This document shows, piece by piece, positions 1,449-30,257 of a stretch of DNA of 64,000 bases; position 1 is the stretch's first letter, and every line of letters starts with the position of its first letter. The stretch is taken from sequence record OR992645.1; one strand, written 5' to 3'. Made by a program: the position numbers and the translations under genes. The notes under the pieces are model-generated. The model was not told where the DNA came from. It did no database searches and worked only from the letters and a program-made list of their open reading frames with translations. This DNA is from Escherichia phage EI-SP-GF.

Positions 1449-2237
1449 TTACTCGGAAACAGGGGTCCAAATATGATTTGCACGATCCTCGATAAGATTG
1501 AGTGCAATCTGACGACCCAACCCGGAACGAACGACATCATCTGGGCTATCAAAGCTAATCATCCCAACCTCAGGATCTGGATGACGAGTAAAGAAATCCG
1601 TTACCCATGCAAGTCCAGACTTACCAGGGATGTCACGTTGGCTATTATCACCCATGATTACAAGTGTGGCCTGATCAGAGATCCTTGTGATAATTGACAA
1701 CATTTCTTCAGGGTTAGTTTGCTGTGCCTCGTCAATTAGGACAAAGCACCGCTCATCGAAACTACGACCACGAATGCTTTCAACTTCACAGATCTCGATA
1801 CGACTGTTCTGACCATCTCCCAGCATTGCGGCAAAAGCACCTTTGCCAACACGACGACAAATCGTGTCCATCATGCTTCGGAGATAGGGCCACAGTTTCT
1901 GCATTGCGTTTCCAGGTTTAAACCCTGAAGTCTTTCCTGTCTGAACGTAAGGGCGTGCAACAATGATCTTATCAATCTCGTTCTTACGCAAAAGATCACC
2001 TGCATATGCGGATGCCATGAATGTCTTACCGGATCCAAACACACCGTTTACAATAATAATCTTACGCGATCCTAGATAATCAAGATACTTTTGCTGCTTT
2101 TTGTTCATTGGTCGGAGAGCTGGAGCTGTGTGCTCTCGTTCGTCAGCAAATTTCTCAGCAGCCTTACGCAGGCGATCAGATTTGCGAGCCTCTCTGGCTT
2201 CATCACGCATGCGTTTTGTTTCTTTAGCTCGACCCAT
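1449..2237 (-). CDS. phoH: PhoH-like ATPase
   Basis: Walker A GVFGSGKTF and Walker B LIDEAQ in a 262-aa protein. Confidence 0.8.
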   Translation of the reverse strand: MGRAKETKRMRDEAREARKSDRLRKAAEKFADEREHTAPALRPMNKKQQKYLDYLGSRKIIIVNGVFGSGKTFMASAYAGDLLRKNEIDKIIVARPYVQTGKTSGFKPGNAMQKLWPYLRSMMDTICRRVGKGAFAAMLGDGQNSRIEICEVESIRGRSFDERCFVLIDEAQQTNPEEMLSIITRISDQATLVIMGDNSQRDIPGKSGLAWVTDFFTRHPDPEVGMISFDSPDDVVRSGLGRQIALNLIEDRANHIWTPVSE

Positions 2238-2275
2238 GTTGGGACTCCTTTCAGATTGAGATGTGTCAAGGACTT

Positions 2276-2626
2276 TTACTGCAACAGTTTTTCAATAGCC
2301 GCTTCCATGCTGCTTGCAACAGCCTGAACTCGGATATTCATCTCTTCTTGGCGGATCAGCTCCTTAAGCTCTTTAACGGTGAATTCTTTAGAGAAACCTT
2401 CCACCATAATCTTGTGCAAGGCTTCTTGCGTGTCTACTTGCAAGAACTTTTCCAGTTTGTTGGCAGAGGCCTCTAAATCGGCCCGAATACGTGGGTCATC
2501 TGTTCGGTTCAGCATTAGGCGTAAGCCATCAAGATTAGTAGAAATAGCGTCTGCATGTTGAGTAACCAACCGTGGCAAAATGAGATCTACAAACTTACTG
2601 GCTAAATCAATACGCTCTTGTGTCAC
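2276..2626 (-). CDS. hypothetical protein (116 aa, GTG start)
   Basis: ORF track; start codon is GTG on inspection; no motif recognised. Confidence 0.35.
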   Translation of the reverse strand: MTQERIDLASKFVDLILPRLVTQHADAISTNLDGLRLMLNRTDDPRIRADLEASANKLEKFLQVDTQEALHKIMVEGFSKEFTVKELKELIRQEEMNIRVQAVASSMEAAIEKLLQ

Positions 2627-2798
2627 TGTTGCACCCCCTCTTCATCTTCATGATATTTCTTTTCACGCTTGTGTTTTTTCTTAAGCTCAAGCGCAATCTC
2701 TTTCTTGTACGCCTTCTTCAAGGCTTTTTTAGCCATTTGGCACCTCCTCTGCTTTCATTACGATAATTATAACCAACTTACCAAAGCTTTGTCAACGA

Positions 2799-3272
2799 TT
2801 AGTCAACCTGAACCCAACTGCCTGCTACCTTTTTAAACATTCTCTGGTTATCACTGCCTCGGAATGGTTTCTTTGTTGGTAAATCTTTTACATACTTGCC
2901 ATCAATGATGATATCAGCCAGCTCAAGAACATCACTAGAGATATGCTCAAATGTGAACCCAGTATACACAAGAATAGTTTTCTTGTCACCAAACTTTTCC
3001 TTAATTCTCCTCATAAGTTTAATAATACCGGGCTCATTATACGTAGCCAAAGGCTCTCCACCAAGCAAAGAAATACCGCATATAGATTCATTGTCCAAAT
3101 CTGACAAAATTCTCTGCAAATCTTCTTCGGTGAATTCTCTTCCCTTATCTTTGGACCAAAATGCTTGATTAAAGCAACCATGACAAGCGTGTGGGCACCC
3201 AGATACCCACAAGGCCGTCCTGAGACCTGGCCCTTCGGTGTAGGATATTTCTGTGTATCCGACAATATTCAT
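2799..3272 (-). CDS. nrdG: anaerobic ribonucleotide reductase activating protein (radical SAM)
   Basis: N-terminal CPHACHGCFN cysteine motif; directly downstream of nrdD. Confidence 0.85.
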   Translation of the reverse strand: MNIVGYTEISYTEGPGLRTALWVSGCPHACHGCFNQAFWSKDKGREFTEEDLQRILSDLDNESICGISLLGGEPLATYNEPGIIKLMRRIKEKFGDKKTILVYTGFTFEHISSDVLELADIIIDGKYVKDLPTKKPFRGSDNQRMFKKVAGSWVQVD

Positions 3273-3385
3273 AAGTACTCCGCATCACATTTAGGACAAT
3301 GCCAAATAAAATCATCCAGTGCCTTGCACCAACGAAGATTGCAATGACAACCACACTTGCAAATTTTATAAATACCTGACGACAT
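3269..3385 (-). CDS. small Cys-rich zinc-ribbon-like protein (38 aa)
   Basis: Hand-translated MSSGIYKICKCGCHCNLRWCKALDDFIWHCPKCDAEYL; stop TGA overlaps nrdG ATG (ATGA); below ORF-track size cutoff. Confidence 0.35.
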   Translation of the reverse strand: MSSGIYKICKCGCHCNLRWCKALDDFIWHCPKCDAEYL

Positions 3386-3448
3386 ACTGCACCTCCTAGT
3401 TTACTGTGTAACAACAATATGCCACATCCTTGTGGCTTTTGTCAAGTA

Positions 3449-4657
3449 TCAGCAACCACAGCTTCCGTAGTGCTTAACCCGTTCTATAACTTCCGCTTGC
3501 TTACCTTTGTTGTAAGGTCGGGAGTTTGGACTGGACAGATACCCAGATACACGTCTAATCACACTGATCGTTCCCTCTTCATGGTTTCCGCACTCTGGGC
3601 ATACAAAGCCTTTAGCTGTTGCACTGAACTCACCAGAGAATCCGCACTTAAGACATTTATCCACAGGTTGGTTAATACCAAAATACATAATGTGTTTATA
3701 CCCGAAATCGACAAGGGATTCCAAAGCATCCAGGTTGTTTTTCAGGTTAGGTGTTTCTATGTATCCAATGTTACCGCCAGAAGAGATCATAGCAAAACCT
3801 TCCTCATACTTCCACTTGTCAAAAGGTGAGCTATTGATCCACACGGGCTGGTGGAAACTGTTGGTAAGGTATTCGTGCTCGTGCTTCAACACTTCAGGAT
3901 ATTCACGATCTAGACATGTTGCAGCCTTATAGCACAAGCTCTCTGAAGGAGTGCCGTACAAGCTGAATGCCAGACCACTTTCTTTTTTGTACCGATCACA
4001 AGCGTCTTTCATGTGCTGAAGGATCCCAAGAGCTAAGGACTTGTCTCCCTCTCTGCCTAAAATCTGGCAGGTTTCATACACACCAATATATCCAATACTT
4101 ATGGAAGCATACCCGTCATAGAAGAGTTTATCAATACTCTCTTCAGGATCCAGGCGAGCAAGAGCTCCTTCACACCACATGATGGGGTTCTGCCCTGCCT
4201 TTGTTCCTTTTAGACGGTTAACCCTTACAAGGTGAGCCTCGTATGCCAGATCCAAGTACTCGTCAAGAACTGCAAAGAAATCAACACCTTCCGTTTTAGC
4301 TTTTGCCGCAATCATTGGTAGGTTAAGGCTAACAACACCTAAGTTAAATCTGCCAAGGTATTTCTCCTCTCCTGTTTCCAAGTCATTGTATTTGCTAAGA
4401 AAACTCCGGCAACCCATGCTTGTGACATTACCTTCTGTTGAACCTGTCACTTTTCTATTCAGTGGTACAGATACGAAGTCAGGATAAATCCGCTCTGCAG
4501 AGCATTCCAGAGCTAATCGTTTCAAATCATAGTTAGGATCCTCGGGGTTCATGTTGATACCCTCCTCCAGGAAGAACAGCACCTTAGGGAACACAGGTGT
4601 GATACGTTCTTCACCAAGACCCATTTTGTGGACTTTCAGGTAGTTTTTGGTAATCAT
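3449..4657 (-). CDS. nrdD: anaerobic ribonucleoside-triphosphate reductase, exon 2 (C-terminal part with glycyl-radical site)
   Basis: C-terminal CPECGN zinc site and RRVSGYL glycyl-radical motif; frame is open up to 4750 so true exon start may lie between 4657 and 4750. Confidence 0.85.
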   Translation of the reverse strand: MITKNYLKVHKMGLGEERITPVFPKVLFFLEEGINMNPEDPNYDLKRLALECSAERIYPDFVSVPLNRKVTGSTEGNVTSMGCRSFLSKYNDLETGEEKYLGRFNLGVVSLNLPMIAAKAKTEGVDFFAVLDEYLDLAYEAHLVRVNRLKGTKAGQNPIMWCEGALARLDPEESIDKLFYDGYASISIGYIGVYETCQILGREGDKSLALGILQHMKDACDRYKKESGLAFSLYGTPSESLCYKAATCLDREYPEVLKHEHEYLTNSFHQPVWINSSPFDKWKYEEGFAMISSGGNIGYIETPNLKNNLDALESLVDFGYKHIMYFGINQPVDKCLKCGFSGEFSATAKGFVCPECGNHEEGTISVIRRVSGYLSSPNSRPYNKGKQAEVIERVKHYGSCGC

Positions 4658-5508
4658 TCTACCAAAGATTGAGGTATCCAGTCCTAAACTTAATGTGATG
4701 AATGGAGTCTGCTGTCTCCTCCCCGTGTTTCCACAGGGCCAGACTATCTCTTACTCTACTTCAATAAGATAATAACCCTTTATTGTGAGATGCTTACCTT
4801 CGGCATTTCCTTCGATAGCCCTATGAACGTTACCTACGTTCAAATTTAAGGCTTTTGCACAGGCATAGAGTGAAGGATATTCACCCACCAAGGTTTTCCC
4901 TTTGTATGCCTGCACTTTCCTATAGCACTTGCCTGGACAAAGTCCTGTTCGGAAAGCATGTCTCTTATTATCTTCCGGCAAAACCCACTCTAGGTTAGAC
5001 GGATGATCATTCAATGTATTGCCATCTTTATGATTCACTTCCCAGTTTTCAGGGTCTTCTGGGACATCTGGCAAACAATACAAGGCAACAATCCTTGAGG
5101 TTTGGATTCGAATCTTTTTACCTTTGTGGTTGAAAGAGTACATATAACGGCGTTTAACATGCTTGTTACCTTTTCCATAACCTCCCCACAATATTGGGTG
5201 TAGCATTCCACGTTTTCCGTATACGTTTCCAACCTCATCAATCACATAGTTTGATTCTTCACCATTAAGAATGATCTTTTTCATAGAGCCTCTCCATTTC
5301 GAAGTTAGTATTTCAACTAACCCCTACACTACTTGGTTCAGAAATGTTTGTCAAGCATCTCTGCCTTTCGTTAGTCGTTACAACCGTTCCAACTCCTGTA
5401 AGAACTAGTCACGGGATTGGCATAGCTTTCGCCTTAGCGTTCCCCGTTAGCCGGATTTACCGACCCCTCTTATGAGGTTAGGAGAGTTTTACAACGGCCA
5501 GTTTGTTA
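4658..5508 (-). mobile_element. group I self-splicing intron interrupting nrdD, carrying an HNH homing endonuclease ORF (boundaries approximate)
   Basis: Sequence between the two nrdD ORFs; minus strand has P7-type elements AACGACTAAC (5' part) and AAGAGATAGTCTGG (3' part) matching group I R/S consensus; free-standing endonuclease ORF between them. Confidence 0.7.
4751..5284 (-). CDS. HNH homing endonuclease (intron-encoded)
   Basis: HNH motif NHKDGNTLNDHPSNLEWV in a 177-aa protein located inside the nrdD intron. Confidence 0.75.
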   Translation of the reverse strand: MKKIILNGEESNYVIDEVGNVYGKRGMLHPILWGGYGKGNKHVKRRYMYSFNHKGKKIRIQTSRIVALYCLPDVPEDPENWEVNHKDGNTLNDHPSNLEWVLPEDNKRHAFRTGLCPGKCYRKVQAYKGKTLVGEYPSLYACAKALNLNVGNVHRAIEGNAEGKHLTIKGYYLIEVE

Positions 5509-19978: not shown

Positions 19979-20449
19979 TCAATCAAGGACAACACCGCCT
20001 GCCTTTTTAAACACCTCGATCAACTTCTCAATCTTCTGTTCATGCTGACCATATCCAGCACCAGGTAACGAAGCCCAGCGGGAACGGCATTTATGGATAG
20101 CCTCGTGGATACGCCCTTCGTCAATGTCGGCGAGAGCCTTGCACTCACGGATCAGTTGCAACGCAATCTTGTCCTGACTGGCAGGGCCAAAATCTGGCAA
20201 TCCTAACTGTTCCATGTAGTGTTTAGCAAACTTCTCCAAAACCTGGTAACGCCCAGCAGCGGAGGAGGTAAGTTTAGCATTTAGCTTAACGTACACACCT
20301 GGATGCTTGCTGTAATCGCTAAACAGCTTGCCACCAACTATGACATCATAGCCCCGATCCTTGGTGGGTTGTCTACCATTATCTGTGCCTTCTGAATATG
20401 CGATCATATCCAAGAAAGCTTTTCGTTGAACATTTTTATCAAGTTTCAT
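19979..20449 (-). CDS. endolysin, lambda R-type lytic transglycosylase
   Basis: Near-collinear similarity to lambda R: QRKAFLDMIAYSEGTDNGRQ...GYDVIVGG...WASLPGAGYGQ. Confidence 0.85.
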   Translation of the reverse strand: MKLDKNVQRKAFLDMIAYSEGTDNGRQPTKDRGYDVIVGGKLFSDYSKHPGVYVKLNAKLTSSAAGRYQVLEKFAKHYMEQLGLPDFGPASQDKIALQLIRECKALADIDEGRIHEAIHKCRSRWASLPGAGYGQHEQKIEKLIEVFKKAGGVVLD

Positions 20450-20573
20450 TTTTCATACTCTCCAGTTTACTCATAACTAACCAGATCAACAACACTACAC
20501 AGTGTGGTTATGTAGGTGCCAATTGAAAAACCATCATTCGATTGGCTACCGTTACCTACTAAACCTTCCTACA

Positions 20574-21857
20574 TCATTCCAGAACCTCCCAAGTGTCTGG
20601 GTCAACATTTCGGACGCAGATACCGACAGGGAATTGGTAGTTGTTGTCTTCTGTCCTTGATTGATATTTGAAGGTGACAAACTTGCCGATCATTTCCTGC
20701 ATCCTGTCATAGCTACGCTCCTCGTGCGTGCCTTTCATCTTCATTTTAACAATAACACCTTCCTTGTCAACACAGATAAGAACACCTTCATCATTCTTAT
20801 CTTTCTCAACGTCAATAACTTTCACCTCTGCGTCGTTGAACTTTTTCCATTTCAATGCTTCAGATGTTCGCTGACCGTACTCGTATTTACCGCAGAAATT
20901 ACGCATGATAGTACCTTCATATCCTTCGGACATGAATATACCAACAGATTCTTCGCAATGATCAACTGTGTACGCAAGCTCTGCGTCAACAACCTTGATA
21001 TGGTCAAGCATCAGAGTGGTAACAGTATCCTCTGCATCCATAAGATCCTTGCAGCGTCCAGACTCTGTTTCTGGATCCCACCACACCTTGTCGCTAGGAA
21101 TATCAAAAATGTGATACTCCAGATCGTAGCTACAGTACCCACCGTAACGCAAATCATCACGAACAGGCTCAACATCGACAGGAATATCTACCTTGTTGAA
21201 GTTTTTGTATGTTGATAAGCCTGCCTTAATTGCTGCATGACGGCGTTTTTTATCTGCCTCATAGTCTTTATCGATCTCGGCCTGAATCTCTTCCTGTGTG
21301 CGCCACCGTTTAGCAAGAGACACTATTTTCTGCAAAGGAAGACCATGAATGTATAGTTCCCCATCAAGTTGTTTAATCCCAGTGGTAGAATGGAAAGAAC
21401 GAAGTTGCTCTAAAAGCTTTCCTTGAATAGGGTAGGACTTATTACCACGGGAAATAAATTTAGGCTCACCATTTTGGAAAACAACAAGCAGACGAAGGCC
21501 ATCTAACTTACGCAAGATCCAGCAAGGTAATTTAAGTGCCTTGCCACGCTTCAGGTAGTCATGCACCAGCATGGGTAAAAGATCAACACCCTGCTCGCAA
21601 TCTTCCATGTTTTCAACATACCCCAGACGGACTTGTTTTTCCCACTTGCTGATAGCCTCAAGCTCGGCCTGTTGCTCAGCTGTAGTCTCGTTGGCACGAC
21701 CTACGTTCTTAGGTGTGCATACCGTCTCTTTGTACTGCAGTTTACCATCAAGCTTGCCAAACTCTACGATAACCTTATCACCATCCGTGAATACTTTCCA
21801 CTGTTGGTAGCTGCCATCTTTATTCAGTGCGTACAGTGTTGTTTTGATCTGATGCAT
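20574..21857 (-). CDS. ATP-dependent DNA ligase
   Basis: Nucleotidyltransferase motif I KLDGLR and motif IV EGYEGTIMR. Confidence 0.6.
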   Translation of the reverse strand: MHQIKTTLYALNKDGSYQQWKVFTDGDKVIVEFGKLDGKLQYKETVCTPKNVGRANETTAEQQAELEAISKWEKQVRLGYVENMEDCEQGVDLLPMLVHDYLKRGKALKLPCWILRKLDGLRLLVVFQNGEPKFISRGNKSYPIQGKLLEQLRSFHSTTGIKQLDGELYIHGLPLQKIVSLAKRWRTQEEIQAEIDKDYEADKKRRHAAIKAGLSTYKNFNKVDIPVDVEPVRDDLRYGGYCSYDLEYHIFDIPSDKVWWDPETESGRCKDLMDAEDTVTTLMLDHIKVVDAELAYTVDHCEESVGIFMSEGYEGTIMRNFCGKYEYGQRTSEALKWKKFNDAEVKVIDVEKDKNDEGVLICVDKEGVIVKMKMKGTHEERSYDRMQEMIGKFVTFKYQSRTEDNNYQFPVGICVRNVDPDTWEVLE

Positions 21858-22449: not shown

Positions 22450-22477
22450 TAATAAGTAAAGCCGGGTAATCCCGGCT
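22450..22477 (-). terminator. hairpin terminator-like element downstream of 22484-23197 gene
   Basis: Perfect 7-bp stem AGCCGGG/CCCGGCT with TAAT loop, followed on minus strand by T-rich tract. Confidence 0.4.
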
Positions 22478-22483
22478 ATGTTG

Positions 22484-23197
22484 TTAAATATACTCTGTTA
22501 CATCCTTGAAGCTCGAAGGCTTCATAATCTTACCTTTACTGTCAAGGAATATAATAACTTTATTGCCGTTGTAGAACTCCTCTTTAGCAACGAAACCTTC
22601 GTAGCGACCACCAAAACGACGCTCAAGATCTTTAATCTCCAACTCGATGAGTTGTTCAGCAGGCATATCTGCACTGGCACCGTGTGAATGCCGTAGATGG
22701 TTGATCCGTGCAAACTTACTGTCATTAGATTTTAGAACCTTCCGCATCATCCCACACACATCCCCGCTAAGCTGGAACAGCAAAGCTGTTGATAACTCCG
22801 CTAGTCGGTAAGCTGACGCTCTTTGCTTGGATGTGTTTTTCGCAGCGATCAGTGTATCATAGAACTCACCGATCTTGAACTTAAGACCTCGCGGATTATC
22901 AAACAGGTTTGACCACTTTTCGTGGTTATCATTAACAAGATAAGCTGCATAACTTGTGACAACGTGAAGATCGCAGGCCTCTTTTAGCAGGTGATCTCCA
23001 CCAGCACCTTTCTCCAGCTCTTCCAAAACCTCATTGAACTCTTCCTCAATGAAGCTAAGCTGTAATTCGAATGGTGTGTATGATTTTTTCACTTTAGCTG
23101 CCACACGGTTCCAGTTTTCCACCCAGTTAGCAGACCAAAGGTAGTTTTCAGGCTGGGACAGTTTTTCCAGGTTGTCGATCAGTTTAGTATTCAGCAT
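22484..23197 (-). CDS. putative MazG-like nucleotide pyrophosphohydrolase
   Basis: EEEFNEVLEELEKG...DHLLKEACDLHVV resembles MazG EExxE/ExxD helices. Confidence 0.35.
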   Translation of the reverse strand: MLNTKLIDNLEKLSQPENYLWSANWVENWNRVAAKVKKSYTPFELQLSFIEEEFNEVLEELEKGAGGDHLLKEACDLHVVTSYAAYLVNDNHEKWSNLFDNPRGLKFKIGEFYDTLIAAKNTSKQRASAYRLAELSTALLFQLSGDVCGMMRKVLKSNDSKFARINHLRHSHGASADMPAEQLIELEIKDLERRFGGRYEGFVAKEEFYNGNKVIIFLDSKGKIMKPSSFKDVTEYI

Positions 23198-23210: not shown

Positions 23211-23972
23211 TTAAAGTTCCATAAAGTTTTCTACAGTTTCAATAAATGCTTTATCAGAGAAAGCGTCAACAGCACCGTTAAACCATACAGGGATCCCGCG
23301 ATCCTCATATTGATAAAGGTCGCTACGTGAAATGCCACTTCCATCTGCACTCTGCGAATCATACTTGTTTACAATCAGCAGTTTTGTGCCTTTACAAGTA
23401 GCAGGAAACAATTCCCAGTTAAAATTAATAACTGTGTTAGAACAACCTACCAGGATCACCATATCATTGCTTGTGAGAGATGTCAACAGGTCATACATGT
23501 CTGTATACTTAGGAGCAACCTCACCGAAGAACACTACATTGGGCTTAACCCAGGTATACTTGCCTGTATCTACCTCCGTGTATCCGATATTTTTAATTAC
23601 ATCATTACCTTCAGCATCTTCGTAGGTGATTTCAGGCAAATACCCGTGGACATGTAAAATATCTTCATGTTTTACACCAGCACGCTCCAGCAAATCATCT
23701 ACATTGGTAGTAAGGTTGATCACACGACCAGACCAGCGGGAATACCACTCAGCGATCCGAAGATGTGCAAGGTTAGGATCAACACTGCCCAGAGCTACAC
23801 GACGTGCATTGTAAAAGTCATGCACCTTATAGTAGTTCTTGGCAAAGGTGTGGATGTTGCACACCTCATCGATGCTGAAATTCTCCCACATTGCAGTGCT
23901 ACCAGATCGGAAAGTGGGAATACCAGATTCAGCGCTCAAACCAGCACCGGAGATAATAATCAGTCGTCGCAT
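23211..23972 (-). CDS. Sir2-family (sirtuin-like) NAD-dependent protein
   Basis: GAGLSAESGIPTFR, TTNVDDL, HVHG, KPNVVFFGE and LVGCS sirtuin motifs; no CxxC zinc ribbon. Confidence 0.75.
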   Translation of the reverse strand: MRRLIIISGAGLSAESGIPTFRSGSTAMWENFSIDEVCNIHTFAKNYYKVHDFYNARRVALGSVDPNLAHLRIAEWYSRWSGRVINLTTNVDDLLERAGVKHEDILHVHGYLPEITYEDAEGNDVIKNIGYTEVDTGKYTWVKPNVVFFGEVAPKYTDMYDLLTSLTSNDMVILVGCSNTVINFNWELFPATCKGTKLLIVNKYDSQSADGSGISRSDLYQYEDRGIPVWFNGAVDAFSDKAFIETVENFMEL

Positions 23973-23980
23973 AAGTGTCC

Positions 23981-24361
23981 TCAGTAGATGTTTTGTTTAA
24001 TCTCTATTCCAAACTTCTTGAATGAGTCAGCAGCAAGCATAAATTTACGAGCTGCCGATGGATTAGAAGTATGCACGAAAATAATCACGTTGTCAATAAG
24101 TGGTGGCTTTCCGAATACAAGTTTCTCCTCTAGCGCAGAGAAGCAGTCGTACCCTTCAAGCACTTCACCTAGATCATTGTCAAAATGCCACTCAGAAACG
24201 CGCCTGTAGAGCTTTCTATTATCGTTAATAAAATCCATGAACTCAGAAGAGTTCTTCAGCCAAAGAGCATCTTGGATTCCGTAATTTGACGGATCTCTCA
24301 AGTCATCTAGCCACACAATCAACTTCTTCATTGCATATAGTCCTCGTTGTGAAAATAGCAA
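23981..24361 (-). CDS. hypothetical protein with receiver-like motif pattern (126 aa)
   Basis: KLIVWLDD...HFDNDLG...VHTSNP pattern reminiscent of a REC-like fold; inference only. Confidence 0.3.
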   Translation of the reverse strand: MLFSQRGLYAMKKLIVWLDDLRDPSNYGIQDALWLKNSSEFMDFINDNRKLYRRVSEWHFDNDLGEVLEGYDCFSALEEKLVFGKPPLIDNVIIFVHTSNPSAARKFMLAADSFKKFGIEIKQNIY

Positions 24362-25263
24362 TCAAGTATCTCACGGCGTTCCTGCTCCAGGAGGCAGTTC
24401 CACACATCTTCTGTGTAATTGCTACGAATGAAGTTTACCATGCCATAAAACTCTTCGTCAATACGTTTAAAGATATCATCATCCCAAATCTTCCAAGCTT
24501 TACCCCTCATTACGGCCTTCCGTGCCAAATAGTATGGAGACTTGATCTTCAGCTGCAGGTCATAAGGGTAGTAAGGCTTACGGATCATATACCCTTCGCC
24601 CCTTGTTTCTGCAGCCAATTCTTTTGCATAGCTGAACGGGATTTCACGCACAGTGTGAGGACGTTTTGCACCAAGGTATTTGGCAATCCCATCTAAAGCT
24701 GCTTCTGGTAGCATTATTCCAGAATCATTATATCTGCAACCTATCAAATATGCGCCATGGTCTTCTTGAACAATATGCGGATCTGAAGGGTGACAAATTT
24801 CAAACATGAATGTCATGTTTTCATTGCCCATAACCTTCTTGATAAGATCTAAATTACCACATTGCTCTTGGATGGTTTCCTTTGCAAGGTTACAATATGG
24901 AGAATCAAGAGACCCGGTTGTTGAGAACAATAGGTCACCTTTATGAGATGATACCACACCAAGGAATCCGTTCTTTTTCTCTACCGCAGTCACAAGCTTA
25001 TTGTCAGGCAGGTTGGTGGAGTTTTCTCCCAAGTTAAACACTTTTGTGAAGGGCCATGCCACAACATTTCCTTCATTACCTACAACAATGCCTCGGCACT
25101 CCAGTAAACGAGGGGACAAATGCCATAAATTGTTGTAAAATACTTTTCTAGCATATTTATAGATCTTTAACCCGAGATCTGGGTAATACCTACTGGTTAC
25201 AAGACCTTTGTCAACTAGGTCGTCTGCATTAAAATACTTCATCATACGTTCCTCATTTGTCAT
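24328..25263 (-). CDS. putative RNA ligase (nucleotidyltransferase)
   Basis: Motif I VEKKNGF (KxNG as in Rnl1/Trl1-type ligases) and motif IV GEGYMIRKP; true start probably ATG at 25242 (GAGGAA RBS). Confidence 0.45.
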   Translation of the reverse strand: MTNEERMMKYFNADDLVDKGLVTSRYYPDLGLKIYKYARKVFYNNLWHLSPRLLECRGIVVGNEGNVVAWPFTKVFNLGENSTNLPDNKLVTAVEKKNGFLGVVSSHKGDLLFSTTGSLDSPYCNLAKETIQEQCGNLDLIKKVMGNENMTFMFEICHPSDPHIVQEDHGAYLIGCRYNDSGIMLPEAALDGIAKYLGAKRPHTVREIPFSYAKELAAETRGEGYMIRKPYYPYDLQLKIKSPYYLARKAVMRGKAWKIWDDDIFKRIDEEFYGMVNFIRSNYTEDVWNCLLEQERREILDCYFHNEDYMQ

Positions 25264-25306
25264 TTTGTCAGTCTATCCTGTCACACAAATAACCTAGTGT
25301 CAACAC

Positions 25307-25335
25307 TTGAAATTAACAAAACAGTTAGATATACT
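25307..25335 (+). promoter_or_regulatory. sigma70-like promoter (TTGAAA-N17-TATACT) for kinase/phosphoesterase operon
   Basis: Hexamers at 25307-25312 and 25330-25335 with 17-nt spacer; back to back with a minus-strand TTGACA at 25298-25303. Confidence 0.45.
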
Positions 25336-25363
25336 ATCGTTGAAATTAAAACGGGGGGTCACT

Positions 25364-25774
25364 ATGTCTAAAATGCTATATATCGTGCGTGGTCTACCAG
25401 GGTCTGGCAAATCAACACTGGCAAATGCGCTATCTTTAGAGGGTCTGTATCCACATTTTGAGAACGACATGTTCTGGTATGACGATGACGGCAATTACAA
25501 CTGGGATGCAAGTAAAGTAACACTCGCAGCGAAATGGTGCAAAGATAACGTAGAAGATATGATGCGTATGGGATACGACCGTATCGTGGTAAGTAATACG
25601 TTTACAAAAGAAAAACATGTGCAGGAATATGTTGACATGGCAATCAGTCATGGGTATAGTTATACCGTGATCGTGGTTGAAAACCGCCACGGTAATAAAA
25701 GCATTCATGATGTTCCAGACAAGGTTGTGGATCGTATGGAACGCCAGCTTAAAAACTGCATTAAACTTAAATGA
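25364..25774 (+). CDS. P-loop polynucleotide-kinase-like protein
   Basis: Walker A VRGLPGSGKSTLA at N-terminus; start moved to ATG 25364 (GGGGGG RBS). Confidence 0.6.
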   Translation: MSKMLYIVRGLPGSGKSTLANALSLEGLYPHFENDMFWYDDDGNYNWDASKVTLAAKWCKDNVEDMMRMGYDRIVVSNTFTKEKHVQEYVDMAISHGYSYTVIVVENRHGNKSIHDVPDKVVDRMERQLKNCIKLK

Positions 25775-25781
25775 GGAATGT

Positions 25782-26336
25782 ATGAAATACTTTGTAACAA
25801 GCGACACACACTTTCTCCACCAGCGGGTCATGGAGTTTGATTCATGTCAAAAACACAGATCTCAGTATGATCACAATCTTGACAGTATGAATGCGGGAAT
25901 CATCGCCGAATGGAACTCTGTTGTGTCACCTGCAGACACTGTGTTCCACTTGGGAGATATTGCGTGCACTAATGATAAGAATATCAACAACTTACTTCCA
26001 GATATTCTAAATATGTTGAACGGACATATTATTCTTGTTCGTGGCAACCATGACACAAGGACGACTGTCAGAATTATGAAAGAGTTCGGTCATGAGGTTG
26101 TAGATTATTACGAGCTTCGCCACAACAAGAATTTGATCTGTATGAGCCATTACCAATTTGCAAAGTGGAACAGAAATCCTCACGGATCAGTCCAACTGTT
26201 CGGTCATGCTCACGGAACCACACAACAGTTGTTTGGCAGGCAGCTTGATGTCGGTTGGGATGTGTGGGGGAGACTCTTACCATTAGAAGAGGCATACCGT
26301 ATTGCAATGAGTTTTGCTATTGACAGCGGGGAGTAA
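25782..26336 (+). CDS. calcineurin-like metallophosphoesterase
   Basis: Motifs SDTHF, LGDIA, VRGNHD; start moved to ATG 25782 (GAGGAA RBS) directly after kinase stop. Confidence 0.65.
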   Translation: MKYFVTSDTHFLHQRVMEFDSCQKHRSQYDHNLDSMNAGIIAEWNSVVSPADTVFHLGDIACTNDKNINNLLPDILNMLNGHIILVRGNHDTRTTVRIMKEFGHEVVDYYELRHNKNLICMSHYQFAKWNRNPHGSVQLFGHAHGTTQQLFGRQLDVGWDVWGRLLPLEEAYRIAMSFAIDSGE

Positions 26337-26383
26337 TCCCTGCTATTTTAAAGAAAATTGCCACACAAGGAGAATCAGGAGAT

Positions 26384-26734
26384 ATGAAAGATGGGGATAA
26401 GCTGCTATATCTTAAAGTCCCCCTTGAAATACTGTCTATGTCAAAAGTTTTGAATGACACAACTGGAGAGGTTGTTGTTCTTGACTTGTATGACAAGATC
26501 GTATACTGCTACCTGCACAACTGGTATAAGCTTGGAGGAAATTCACGCTTCACACCCAGCACAAGGAAAATTGCAGCAGATGTTGGGATAAAGAAAACAA
26601 AAGCAGCAGCGTGCGTTAAAACTTTAGAGTGTGCAGGGGTGGTTGAAACATCCACACAAGGGAGAGGTAAAAGATGCACATTTTCCAAAGTTTTGCCACC
26701 AGAAGAAGTTATTCGGATGTCAACAACTGGTTAG
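26384..26734 (+). CDS. putative HTH DNA-binding protein (116 aa)
   Basis: STRKIAADVGIKKTKAAACVKTLECAGVVE resembles a winged-helix/HTH recognition segment. Confidence 0.4.
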   Translation: MKDGDKLLYLKVPLEILSMSKVLNDTTGEVVVLDLYDKIVYCYLHNWYKLGGNSRFTPSTRKIAADVGIKKTKAAACVKTLECAGVVETSTQGRGKRCTFSKVLPPEEVIRMSTTG

Positions 26735-26809
26735 ACCAGTAAAAACTTAAATATCTGTACTATAAGGATTCGTATGTTTTATGTTCGCTCTAGAATAGAG
26801 GTCAGTAAC

Positions 26810-26890
26810 TGTCCGTGATACGGACACTACTGTCCGTCACGCGGACACATCTGCCCGTAATACGGACACTAACTGTCCGTGATACGGACA
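26810..26890. repeat. four tandem 17-bp palindromic operator-like sites (TGTCCG-N5-CGGACA)
   Basis: Copies at 26810-26826, 26831-26847, 26853-26869, 26874-26890; copies 1 and 4 identical, 2 and 3 slightly degenerate; centre-to-centre spacing 21-22 bp. Confidence 0.65.
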
Positions 26891-27395
26891 CATAAAGAAT
26901 ATAACTAAAATAACTAAATAATAAAAAATAAAAGATCTAGTACTTATGGTACTAAAGTACATATACTTAACTTATGTAGAATATACTAGATCCTAAGTAC
27001 CATGTTTTAAATTTATTACTTACTATAGGTAGTGTCGGCCCTTCATTGGCACTCGCCTACGAGGGGCGAGATGCCGGGCCTCCATAGTGCACACAATAAC
27101 AGAAGTGCATACATGCAGGTCTGTTAACATGTGTGGGAGCGAAGCGATAGCGCAGGCCAAAGGCCGAGCACTAATGTGGACCACCGACGAAAGCTTGCCA
27201 GCGCCGTAAGGGGTCGGTTGAGAGCCTCCCGCGCGAGTTTGGATAAAGTTTATGTGTGGAAACTGACAAGAAGGCCCCTAAATCGCTCCACAGCTATATA
27301 AACTATACCAAGTAAGGCAATCGCACCAGTTTGATAGAAAAGCTCGTTACAAAGCGATACAGTTAGTTTTTCTATAACTTGAAGAGGAGTCTGCT

Positions 27396-29272: not shown

Positions 29273-29344
29273 GCCCTGTTAGCTTAGTGGATAAAGCAGC
29301 GGCCTTCTAAGCCGTTGACACTGGTTCGAGTCCAGTACGGGGTG
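29273..29344 (+). tRNA. tRNA-Arg(TCT)
   Basis: Hand-folded cloverleaf: acceptor GCCCTGT/ACGGGGT, D-stem GCTT/AAGC, anticodon loop CTTCTAA, T-loop TTCGAGT, encoded CCA. Confidence 0.8.
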
Positions 29345-29477
29345 CCAAGTTCTTTTTAATGTAGCTTACTTTAGCAGAGTAAATCTTCGGCAAGTGGCGG
29401 TAACCACTTTACCGATACCTCATAGTTAGTGGTTAGAACACTAGCTATTTTAAAAAGAATTTAAATATTAGTATTTA

Positions 29478-29562
29478 GGTGAGTTAATTCCGTAGGGGTA
29501 GCGGGGCAGACTGTAAATCTGTTATCATTGCGATTCGGGTGGTTCGACTCCATCACTCACCA
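29478..29562 (+). tRNA. tRNA-Tyr(GTA), type II with long variable arm
   Basis: Acceptor GGTGAGT/ACTCACC, anticodon loop CTGTAAA, T-loop TTCGACT, CCA encoded. Confidence 0.75.
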
Positions 29563-29680
29563 CCAAATTTATATTTTTAAATGCATAAATCATACAGATA
29601 ATGGCATTGATATTTATCGTCGTTTATACTAGTCACTAACTGCTCGAAAATCAGTGTCATTATCAGTATTGTTTATAAAA

Positions 29681-29768
29681 GAGGGTAGGGAGCAATGGTG
29701 CTCAAGCGGTCTTGAAAACCGTCCCGTTGAGGATGACTCGATGATGGTTCGATTCCATTATCCTCTGC
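29681..29768 (+). tRNA. tRNA-Ser(TGA), type II
   Basis: Acceptor AGAGGGT/ATCCTCT, anticodon loop CTTGAAA, long variable arm, T-loop TTCGATT, CCA encoded. Confidence 0.7.
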
Positions 29769-29868
29769 CATATTGTTGACCTTGTAATTAAGCGAAAGCC
29801 GGAAGCAGAACCGGATTATCAAATGTTACAGTCGTCATCGCCGACTAGCAACATGGTCAACATACTGA

Positions 29869-29965
29869 GCTAGGTAAGCCCTTTGGCAAGGGCGAGGATT
29901 TTTAATCCTGAAAATAGACGAGGTAGTCGTTGAATACATAGATGGTTCGATTCCATCACCTAGCA
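29869..29965 (+). pseudogene. aberrant tRNA-like element (possible degenerate tRNA-Lys(TTT)-like)
   Basis: Canonical acceptor GCTAGGT/ACCTAGC, D-arm GCCC/GGGC and T-arm GATGG-TTCGATT-CCATC, but 97 nt long with about 30 nt between anticodon-like hairpin and T-arm. Confidence 0.35.
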
Positions 29966-29971
29966 CCTTTT

Positions 29972-30044
29972 GCTGATGTAGCACAATTGGCAGTGCAATT
30001 GATTTGTAATCAATAGGTTGCAGGTTCAAGTCCTGCCATCAGCA
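29972..30044 (+). tRNA. tRNA-Thr(TGT)
   Basis: Complete 73-nt cloverleaf: acceptor GCTGATG/CATCAGC, anticodon stem ATTGA/TCAAT with loop TTTGTAA, T-loop TTCAAGT, CCA encoded. Confidence 0.85.
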
Positions 30045-30048
30045 CCAT

Positions 30049-30120
30049 GGCCCTGTAGCTGGAAGGTTCAAGCAAGCGACTCATAATCGCCAGACGGTGG
30101 TTCAATTCCACCCAGGGCCA
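30049..30120 (+). tRNA. tRNA-Met(CAT) (elongator or Ile2-type)
   Basis: Acceptor GGCCCTG/CAGGGCC, anticodon loop CTCATAA, T-arm GGTGG-TTCAATT-CCACC; starts 1 nt after tRNA-Thr CCA. Confidence 0.8.
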
Positions 30121-30134
30121 CCAAATAATAAATA

Positions 30135-30208
30135 CTCCGCGTAGCTCAGCTTGGTAGAGCGCCTGATTTGGGATCAGGAGGTCGAGTGTTCGAATCACTC
30201 CGTGGAGA
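30135..30208 (+). tRNA. tRNA-Pro(TGG)
   Basis: Acceptor CTCCGCG/CGTGGAG (C1-G72 as in bacterial tRNA-Pro), D-arm AGCTCAGCTTGGTAGAGC, anticodon loop TTTGGGA, T-loop TTCGAAT. Confidence 0.85.
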
Positions 30209-30257
30209 CCACCTTTAGTTATACTTTAAATATATACACACAAAAGGAACCTTTAAA

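Follow-up and report, generated by a model that had tools for sequence, protein, structure and literature searches.

Gene content and layout of the locus

A 64,000-nucleotide stretch of the genome of Escherichia phage EI-SP-GF (sequence record OR992645.1), hereafter the window, carries six adjacent genes that we interpret as a phage "heal-and-seal" module for the repair of RNA breaks, split over separate proteins. On sequence evidence, we place the probability of this reading at roughly 0.7. Four of the genes lie on the minus strand. They encode an Rnl1-family ATP-dependent RNA ligase of 305 residues (24328..25245; Pfam RNA_lig_T4_1, E 1.1e-14), a cREC protein of 116 residues (23981..24331; Pfam cREC_REC, PF20274, E 5.7e-14), a sirtuin of 253 residues, nearest to class III (CobB/SIRT5) and without zinc cysteines (23211..23972; Pfam SIR2, E 6.9e-28), and an all-alpha nucleoside triphosphate (NTP) pyrophosphohydrolase of 237 residues from the MazG / dimeric-dUTPase superfamily (22484..23197). 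A spacer of 118 bp (25246..25363), likely to hold divergent promoters, separates the ligase gene from two genes on the plus strand. These encode a stand-alone P-loop polynucleotide 5'-kinase-like protein of 136 residues (25364..25774; Pfam AAA_33, E 1.7e-10) and a calcineurin-type metallophosphoesterase of 184 residues (25782..26336; Pfam Metallophos and Metallophos_2), predicted to heal 2',3'-phosphate ends.

The window belongs to a Vequintavirus, an rV5-like myovirus with a genome in the range of about 131-140 kb. The 3.5-kb region of interest is 99.9% identical to published Escherichia phages; of 119 matching records, 117 contain most of it, and existing annotations there read "RNA ligase", "sirtuin domain NAD-dependent deacetylase", "polynucleotide kinase" and "putative phosphoesterase". 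A preliminary description of the sequence had placed five adjacent genes at 23211-26336. All five are found there, and Pfam confirms their domain calls; the sixth gene, 22484-23197(-), was omitted, as was the cREC identity of a protein described as receiver-like. The cluster is real and was correctly read, and it is already known as a computational prediction. Iyer, Burroughs, Anantharaman and Aravind (Viruses 2022, PMC9503650, section 3.7.3) described a type 2 sirtuin-centred neighbourhood with Escherichia phage V5 and Proteus phage Mydo as prototypes. It comes from the same phage group and has the same gene set (sirtuin, T4-like ligase, cREC, kinase, MazG-superfamily pyrophosphatase, calcineurin-like phosphoesterase), with no essential difference from the locus considered here; because of this prior prediction, the novelty of the cluster is low. 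The present analysis adds the recognition of ligase, kinase and phosphoesterase as a conserved core, a complementarity between phosphoesterases and HAD-fused kinases, and the placement of the "MazG" member nearest to dimeric dUTPases.

Starts of the longest open reading frames are overlong for four of the five genes first described; better starts have Shine-Dalgarno sequences and match those in the Bas59 record. The ligase most likely begins at ATG 25245, which has GAGGA upstream and is also the start in Bas59. Corrected starts for cREC, kinase and phosphoesterase are ATG 24331, ATG 25364 and ATG 25782, respectively. The ligase stop overlaps the cREC start at ATG 24331, an arrangement by which cREC is, to judge from sequence, translationally coupled to the ligase, and the next two intergenic gaps are 8 and 13 nt. 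A terminator-like hairpin on the minus strand (22460..22477), found by consensus scan and by reading the sequence, has the form AGCCGGG-ATTA-CCCGGCT; it is GC-rich, is followed by a T-rich tail, and lies 6 nt past the stop of the 237-residue protein's gene. Because a fourth co-oriented gene is followed by this hairpin, the leftward unit is taken to run from ligase as first gene through cREC and sirtuin to the 237-residue protein as last.

An RNA ligase with an Rnl1-like core

The strings KKNG and EGYMIRKP, from which a putative RNA ligase was first proposed, are genuine nucleotidyltransferase motifs. Motif I is K90-K-N-G, motif III F148-E149, motif IV E217-G-Y-M-I-R and motif V K233-I-K235. 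All are invariant in 57 homologues, and all align with motifs I, III, IV and V of T4 Rnl1. Three N-terminal contacts of Rnl1, namely R51 (within ECRG), K68 and F70, are invariant in the same homologues and align with "ECRG" and "EKFFN" of the T4 enzyme. A profile built from six ligase sequences and searched against PDB recovered T4 Rnl1 (2C5U) with E 4.6e-26, followed by Rnl3-type RNA ligases at 4e-5. Profiles were required for both ligase and kinase; as single sequences against PDB sequences, ligase, kinase and cREC returned nothing useful.

An AlphaFold2 (AF2) model of the ligase has a pLDDT (predicted local distance difference test) of 93.9. In Foldseek searches with this model, fungal Trl1-LIG and T4 Rnl1 were the top hits, level at about 1e-11. 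Matches to Trl1, Rnl1 and Rnl3 structures ranged from about 1e-11 to 1e-7, while DNA ligases reached no better than E 6e-5, with template modelling (TM) scores below 0.4. Profile and model agree that the nearest relatives of the protein are RNA ligases, with DNA ligases and capping enzymes more distant; it groups with T4 Rnl1 and the fungal tRNA ligase, not with DNA ligases. Sealing of RNA 3'-OH to 5'-PO4 ends is its predicted activity.

After motif V, only about 65 residues follow, forming four helices in the AF2 model (237-299), and HMM (hidden Markov model) alignments to T4 Rnl1 end at or just past this motif. The ligase does not match the C-terminal helical domain specific to T4 Rnl1, a region of about 120 residues that confers tRNA specificity. 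The short tail and the end point of the alignments suggest an Rnl1-like core with a short C-terminal domain of its own. A role in tail-fibre attachment, the second function of T4 gp63 and one copied into many annotations, was considered and set aside, since the protein lacks the C-terminal domain specific to T4 and its catalytic motifs do not vary.

Kinase and phosphoesterase

A profile of five kinase sequences recovered T4 Pnk from PDB (1LTQ/1LY1, E 3.4e-5), followed by Pnkp1 (4XRP, 1.9e-3) and CthPnk (4GP7, 0.015). Polynucleotide kinases match the profile over the whole domain and nucleotide kinases over the P-loop only, with modest margins between them. The protein also matches PHROG 505, "polynucleotide kinase", at 4.7e-10, and it matches the N-terminus of PHROG 8238, a profile of 737 positions to which the ligase aligns at the C-terminal end. 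Five diverse homologues all share G10-x-x-G13-x-G15-K16 and D40, which align with "GCPGSGKST" and "NRDDYR" of T4, the latter containing catalytic Asp35. The P-loop kinase of the preliminary description thus holds up as an AAA_33 protein that, over its full length, is matched best by polynucleotide kinases and not by nucleotide kinases. At 136 residues it stands alone, with no HAD 3'-phosphatase fused to it as in T4 Pnkp.

The calcineurin-type phosphoesterase has likewise been correctly named. It matches Pfam Metallophos above the cut-off and Metallophos_2 as well, and its translation contains the full set of metal-binding motifs, SDTHF, LGDI, RGNHD, SHY and GHAHG. Its nearest solved relative is Aquifex aq_1665 (PDB 1XM7, 1.8e-10), and it also matches PHROG 547. 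A weak match to the NCBIfam model for ligase-associated PdeM (E 3e-4) falls far under the cut-off.

A conserved core of ligase, kinase and phosphoesterase

A set of 83 ligase-centred loci was drawn from GenBank phages and IMG/VR and scanned with iteratively built HMMs. In 64 of them, no more than 3 kb separates kinase and ligase (no more than 0.5 kb in 48), the kinase usually being immediately downstream, and the phosphoesterase lies within 3 kb of the ligase in 46; cREC and the sirtuin are each found at this distance in 10 of the 83. The triad of ligase, kinase and phosphoesterase keeps its synteny in unrelated genera, occurring in Phapecoctavirus, Pakpunavirus, Thalassavirus, Saclayvirus and many uncultured phages. 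Kinase and phosphoesterase genes on the strand opposite to the ligase are found only in Vequintavirus. From these loci, the triad is the conserved core of the module.

Across the loci, the type of phosphatase varies together with the lengths of ligase and kinase. A separate phosphoesterase accompanies 41 of 49 short kinases (about 130-170 residues) and none of 13 kinases fused to a DxDGT HAD domain of the T4 Pnkp type (Fisher p = 2e-8); the fused domains are confined to the clade with long ligases. This complementarity is the strongest argument for the phosphoesterase as the 3'-end healing enzyme, and it bears out the early suggestion of separate polypeptides in which a metallophosphatase takes the place of the HAD phosphatase. 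We hold with good confidence, from sequence and synteny, that the core triad would constitute an RNA repair system.

T4-type Pnk enzymes act on DNA as well as RNA, so that kinase and phosphoesterase might instead heal DNA ends for the DNA ligase encoded at 20574-21857, in a PNKP-like form of DNA repair. A DNA ligase gene is present somewhere in 35 of the 83 loci, in 20 of them at 3 kb or less from the RNA ligase, and the weak PdeM match of the phosphoesterase points the same way. However, no DNA ligase gene falls within the 0.5 kb of the RNA ligase where 48 loci have the kinase, the triad occurs without any DNA ligase in a Vibrio phage locus and many others, and PHROG 8238 combines kinase and RNA ligase in one profile. 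Healing of DNA ends is, in our judgment, very improbable.

cREC and a zinc-less sirtuin in the leftward unit

The small protein first called receiver-like belongs to a named family associated with RNA repair. It scores 53 bits against PF20274, where the cut-off is 27, and its invariant D9, D10, D51, D53, S89 and K96 make up a receiver-like catalytic set. The cREC family was defined by Iyer et al. in 2021, who noted its operonic linkage to RNA ligases (PMC7824862); cyclic phosphodiesterase activity is a published prediction for it (PMC7824862, PMC9503650).

The Sir2-like assignment also stands. Beyond its Pfam SIR2 match, the protein finds CobB (1S5P, 3.2e-21) and SIRT5 (6e-21) in PDB. GAGxS, TxNxD and catalytic His109 are invariant in seven diverse phage homologues, so that NAD motifs and catalytic histidine are kept, as is FYNxRR, which carries the class III Y-x-x-R. 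The Cys4 zinc module is gone: no CxxC pairs occur in the clade of sirtuins from phages of proteobacteria, while a Streptomyces phage homologue retains them. All NCBIfam CobB equivalogs exclude the protein, the best score being 122.6 bits where 243 are required. A defence-type NADase Sir2 was set aside because PADLOC gave no match for the sirtuin or for any other protein of the cluster. The further suggestion that the module counters NAD-depleting defences finds nothing to support it. Sirtuins consume NAD+, for which reason we reject such a role for this one, and the NAD-salvage genes found in loci of other phages are absent from this locus.

Among 79 sirtuin-centred loci, a ligase gene lies within 10 kb of the sirtuin in 10, all from the related rV5, Mydo and Erwinia-phage group. 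A HAD_SAK_2 protein, named in Pfam as "HAD domain in Swiss Army Knife RNA repair proteins", is encoded within 2 kb in 33 loci, usually within 0.5 kb and mostly in T5-like phages. The two contexts never occur together. In the most distant loci, the neighbours are HAD_SAK_2, Thg1, MazG-like and NAD-salvage enzymes. With HAD_SAK_2 and Thg1 as neighbours, this sirtuin clade recurs beside RNA-end-processing enzymes in unrelated phages, and these recurring neighbourhoods support a functional link of the sirtuin to RNA-end processing. The association of Sir2 with repair genes drawn in the preliminary description is upheld to this extent; adjacency to the ligase itself is seen in related lineages only.

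A proposed pathway and its alternatives

The steps of the core pathway follow from homology and synteny. An RNA, most likely a tRNA in its anticodon loop, would be cut by a host ribotoxin or anticodon nuclease. The stand-alone kinase would phosphorylate the 5'-OH, and the metallophosphoesterase would open and remove the 2',3'-phosphate. The Rnl1-family ligase would then join 3'-OH to 5'-phosphate by way of lysyl-AMP on K90. cREC, the zinc-less sirtuin and the NTP pyrophosphohydrolase, presumably transcribed with the ligase, are probably accessory enzymes. It has been proposed that cREC resolves cyclic phosphates and that the sirtuin, like Tpt1/KptA, strips a 2'-phosphate with the use of NAD+, leaving an ADP-ribose by-product to be cleared by cREC and the pyrophosphatase (PMC9503650). 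Our own estimate is that a part for the sirtuin in RNA repair, of whatever kind, is somewhat less probable than its absence.

A number of observations weigh against this interpretation of the cluster. When the phosphoesterase was searched against PDB (E <= 1), neither the CthPnkp phosphatase nor lambda phosphatase was recovered, and 1XM7, its nearest solved relative, has no known function. The confinement of sirtuin-ligase adjacency to the rV5, Mydo and Erwinia-phage lineages means that shared ancestry may explain the linkage. A 15-kb ligase locus of the phAPEC8-like type lacks the sirtuin, the homologous genes being about 25-30 kb apart in the records, and T5-like phages have no ligase gene within 10 kb of the sirtuin. 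The 237-residue protein is structurally most like dimeric dUTPases, and because its gene lies beyond the DNA ligase in other lineages, it may belong to DNA metabolism. Literature searches on phage sirtuins, Vequintavirus RNA repair and transcriptomes found no experimental work, whether biochemical, genetic or on transcripts.

Several of these points would fit a view in which repair is the work of the triad, and sirtuin, cREC and pyrophosphohydrolase are unrelated early-gene neighbours. The sirtuin would then be a CobB-like deacylase or an ADP-ribosyltransferase (ART) acting on host or phage proteins, and the 237-residue protein a phage dUTPase. CobB and SIRT5 are indeed the closest characterised relatives of the sirtuin, and the class III Y-x-x-R is kept; the separation from the ligase in phAPEC8-like phages, the lack of a nearby ligase in T5-like phages and the low count of sirtuins within 3 kb of the ligase (10 of 83 loci) agree, as does the remainder of the leftward arm, which is devoted to DNA metabolism (thymidylate synthase, ribonucleotide reductases, DNA ligase). 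But the cREC family occurs with RNA ligases in many contexts (PMC7824862) and is here translationally coupled to one, and the same sirtuin clade sits beside the HAD_SAK_2 RNA-end phosphatase in 33 of 79 loci. The cysteines have been lost from the very zinc module that shapes the peptide-binding small domain, and the sirtuin scores far under CobB equivalog cut-offs. We regard a module confined to the triad as somewhat unlikely, and keep the heal-and-seal module with accessory enzymes as the preferred reading.

A pathway of the yeast type would assign the accessory enzymes a central place. cREC or the phosphoesterase would open the cyclic phosphate to a 2'-phosphate, the ligase would seal the resulting 3'-OH,2'-PO4 end, and the sirtuin, as an analogue of Tpt1, would use NAD+ to remove the 2'-phosphate from the junction; the by-product, ADP-ribose cyclic phosphate, would be degraded by cREC and the pyrophosphohydrolase. 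This route was proposed by Iyer et al. 2022 (PMC9503650), and the standing of Trl1-LIG structures level with T4 Rnl1 in Foldseek is consistent with it. So is a set of residues invariant in the short-ligase clade: His157, at +8 from the motif III Glu, and Lys243 and Arg247, at +8 and +12 from the second Lys of motif V. In fungal Trl1, the triad that enforces the 2'-PO4 requirement consists of a His at +9 after the motif III Glu and Args at +9 and +12 after motif V (PMC11404444, PMC6379707). The corresponding residues are Ile, Ser and Ser in T4 Rnl1, an enzyme that leaves 2'-P ends unligated (PMC12440814), and Ile, Lys and Gly in a Streptomyces member of the long clade. NAD-salvage genes also recur in other phages, both near the sirtuin clade and near the triad.

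Other evidence runs the opposite way. The ligase sequence is far nearer to T4 Rnl1 than to Trl1, which a deeper ligase profile did not recover at E <= 10, so that the correspondence of His157, Lys243 and Arg247 to the Trl1 triad is one of linear spacing. The same residues are equally invariant in many phages that have no sirtuin or cREC. The conserved metallophosphoesterase could by itself yield clean 2',3'-OH ends, making a 2'-phosphate route unnecessary. To our knowledge, no sirtuin acts on RNA. A yeast-type route is therefore, as we weigh it, unlikely. In its most specific form, the short-ligase clade would be 2'-PO4-specific or tolerant, by virtue of its invariant His157 and Arg247. RNA 2'-phosphate transfer, dependent on NAD and carried out by a non-ART enzyme, would fall to the zinc-less sirtuin, and removal of the by-product to cREC and the pyrophosphohydrolase. 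We think this idea unlikely. The clade-specific pattern of His157, Lys243 and Arg247, which is suggestive only, may be a new observation. If true, the idea would extend sirtuins to a reaction class new for them and give bacterial viruses their own version of eukaryotic tRNA-splicing end chemistry, and triad phages without a sirtuin might depend on KptA, the host homologue of Tpt1. We know of no natural substrate for bacterial KptA.

Downstream of the cluster, on the plus strand, lies a group of tRNA genes (29273-30211), six of them called by ARAGORN and a seventh by Rfam at 29478-29562 (39 bits; anticodon GTA by eye). Three of the genes are oversized. One, 29869-29967, is reported as "tRNA-???" and by eye is Lys-UUU, its variable region being some 31 nt long. 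For the gene at 29680-29770 (Ser-TGA), the tRNA-Sec model gives the highest score, though below its threshold. The specificities Lys-UUU, Tyr, Thr-UGU and Arg-UCU in the group correspond to known targets of tRNA-cleaving defences.

The module could also serve to mature or maintain RNAs of the phage itself, such as these oversized tRNAs 3 kb downstream, and have no anti-defence role. The proximity of the plus-strand tRNA cluster with its three oversized genes is in keeping with that, as are a member of the ligase clade embedded among tRNA genes in a Streptomyces phage and a phAPEC8-like phage in which tRNAs lie 5 kb away from the triad. On the other hand, neither an intron nor a splicing endonuclease was identified, the Lys tRNA is, by eye, enlarged in the variable region and not in the anticodon loop, and many triad phages have no tRNA genes in the locus. 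Upkeep of the phage's own RNAs seems to us quite improbable, and repair of RNA cut by host nucleases remains the preferred function.

Promoters and expected expression

In the spacer between ligase and kinase genes, a promoter scan called a plus-strand sigma-70-like site, with TTGAAA at 25307-25312, 17 nt between the boxes, and TATACT at 25330-25335. Back to back with its -35 box is a perfect minus-strand TTGACA at 25303-25298. The only minus-strand -10 is a weak TGn-CAGGAT at 25283-25275, 17 nt from the -35 box and read by eye, and the sigma-70 scan of the spacer called no minus-strand promoter. A 12-nt island, GTCAACACTTGA, includes both -35 boxes and is unchanged in a relative with about 90% protein identity, while the rest of the spacer has diverged. 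The back-to-back sites and the conserved -35 island make divergent early promoters likely here. For the divergent promoters first placed at 25298-25335, the back-to-back -35 boxes and the plus-strand site are thus borne out; the minus-strand promoter, which the scan does not call, is accepted provisionally from its conserved -35 box and weak TG-extended -10.

GC skew switches sign at the locus, which is also the point from which the genome's two transcription arms run apart. The leftward arm continues with DNA ligase, endolysin, exonucleases, thymidylate synthase and ribonucleotide reductases, and the rightward arm with small genes, the tRNA cluster and structural genes. From this position and the sigma-70-like promoters, the genes are probably expressed early in infection by the host RNA polymerase. 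Co-expression of the cluster genes is suggested by operon structure and promoters, its sole grounds.

Comparison with known repair systems

A functional parallel is T4 Pnkp with Rnl1, which counters the PrrC anticodon nuclease. The ligase is of the Rnl1 family, with all nucleotidyltransferase motifs and the N-terminal subdomain, and the kinase is homologous to the kinase domain of T4 Pnk over its full length. Unlike T4, the phage has a stand-alone kinase, 3' healing assigned to a metallophosphoesterase instead of a fused HAD phosphatase, and additional genes for cREC, sirtuin and pyrophosphohydrolase. Its ligase has 305 residues, compared to about 374 for T4 Rnl1 (375-395 in PDB chains), and a C-terminal domain that is short and different.

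Bacterial Pnkp/Hen1 systems (C. thermocellum Pnkp; Capnocytophaga Pnkp1-Rnl-Hen1) share with the cluster a P-loop 5' kinase, a dinuclear metallophosphoesterase and an ATP-dependent ligase, and the kinase profile matches both their Pnkp1 and their CthPnk. They differ in that the three activities of the phage set are separate polypeptides and its ligase is of the Rnl1 and not the Rnl4 type; the segment of the window examined showed no Hen1 methyltransferase, and the phosphoesterase is nearest to Aquifex aq_1665, without a specific match to the CthPnkp phosphatase. The fungal and plant pair of Trl1 and Tpt1 has a ligase whose fold is matched as well as that of T4 Rnl1, a kinase and a linked NAD-using enzyme. 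By linear spacing only, the phage ligase has His and Arg at positions like those of the Trl1 2'-PO4 triad. Here the differences are a ligase without detectable sequence similarity to Trl1 and the lack of any 2H cyclic phosphodiesterase or Tpt1/KptA match among the six module proteins (Pfam, PHROG, NCBIfam), for which cREC and sirtuin are proposed stand-ins. The sirtuin is like the class III enzymes E. coli CobB and human SIRT5 in its best sequence matches, NAD motifs, catalytic His and Y-x-x-R, and unlike them in its lost zinc cysteines, its distance from CobB cut-offs and its RNA-end-processing gene context.

Defences that cleave tRNA (PrrC, RloC, PARIS, retron effectors, OLD, Cas13, Cas12a3) are now regarded as widespread. 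T4 repair is the only well-studied answer from a phage, and the module would be a second kit, built differently. It is common in phages of E. coli, Klebsiella, Pseudomonas, Vibrio and Acinetobacter used for therapy, and the attached sirtuin offers a concrete test case for new NAD-dependent RNA-end chemistry.

Neighbouring genes and related phages

Three unrelated phages without the sirtuin, Vibrio phage Chester, Pseudomonas phage PAK_P4 and Acinetobacter phage Aci05, carry the triad a few kb from NAD-related genes, which encode a ribose-phosphate pyrophosphokinase-like protein and nicotinamide phosphoribosyltransferase. In PAK_P4 and Chester, a further small gene bears the annotation "phosphatase"; the one in PAK_P4 is Macro, Poa1p-like. 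Genes for RNA repair thus recur together with NAD genes even where there is no sirtuin.

Directly after the phosphoesterase, a helix-turn-helix (HTH) protein is encoded at 26384-26734 (+); it matches DUF6945/HTH_36 and, in PHROG, "replication initiation protein". Its gene has a promoter-like site of its own at 26320-26349, and the protein could regulate the early region. Past this gene, a region of about 660 bp (26735-27395) has only tiny annotated open reading frames in relatives and no convincing match in Rfam, the best being rli43 at 26 bits against a threshold of 100.

The DNA ligase at 20574-21857 (-) is ATP-dependent and has 427 residues. Pfam sees only the last third of its adenylation domain (residues 285-338) and the OB domain; the N-terminal two thirds are very diverged or contain insertions. 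In Bas59 (locus 2229-4858), a homing-endonuclease gene lies between endolysin and DNA ligase, and another just past endolysin. Endolysin and DNA ligase abut in the window (19979-21857, minus strand), so at least the first of these insertions is absent. Finally, 18 near-identical records are labelled "Campylobacter phage", with a Campylobacter host (mostly C. jejuni). As all relatives are E. coli phages, these records are probably mislabelled or contaminant.

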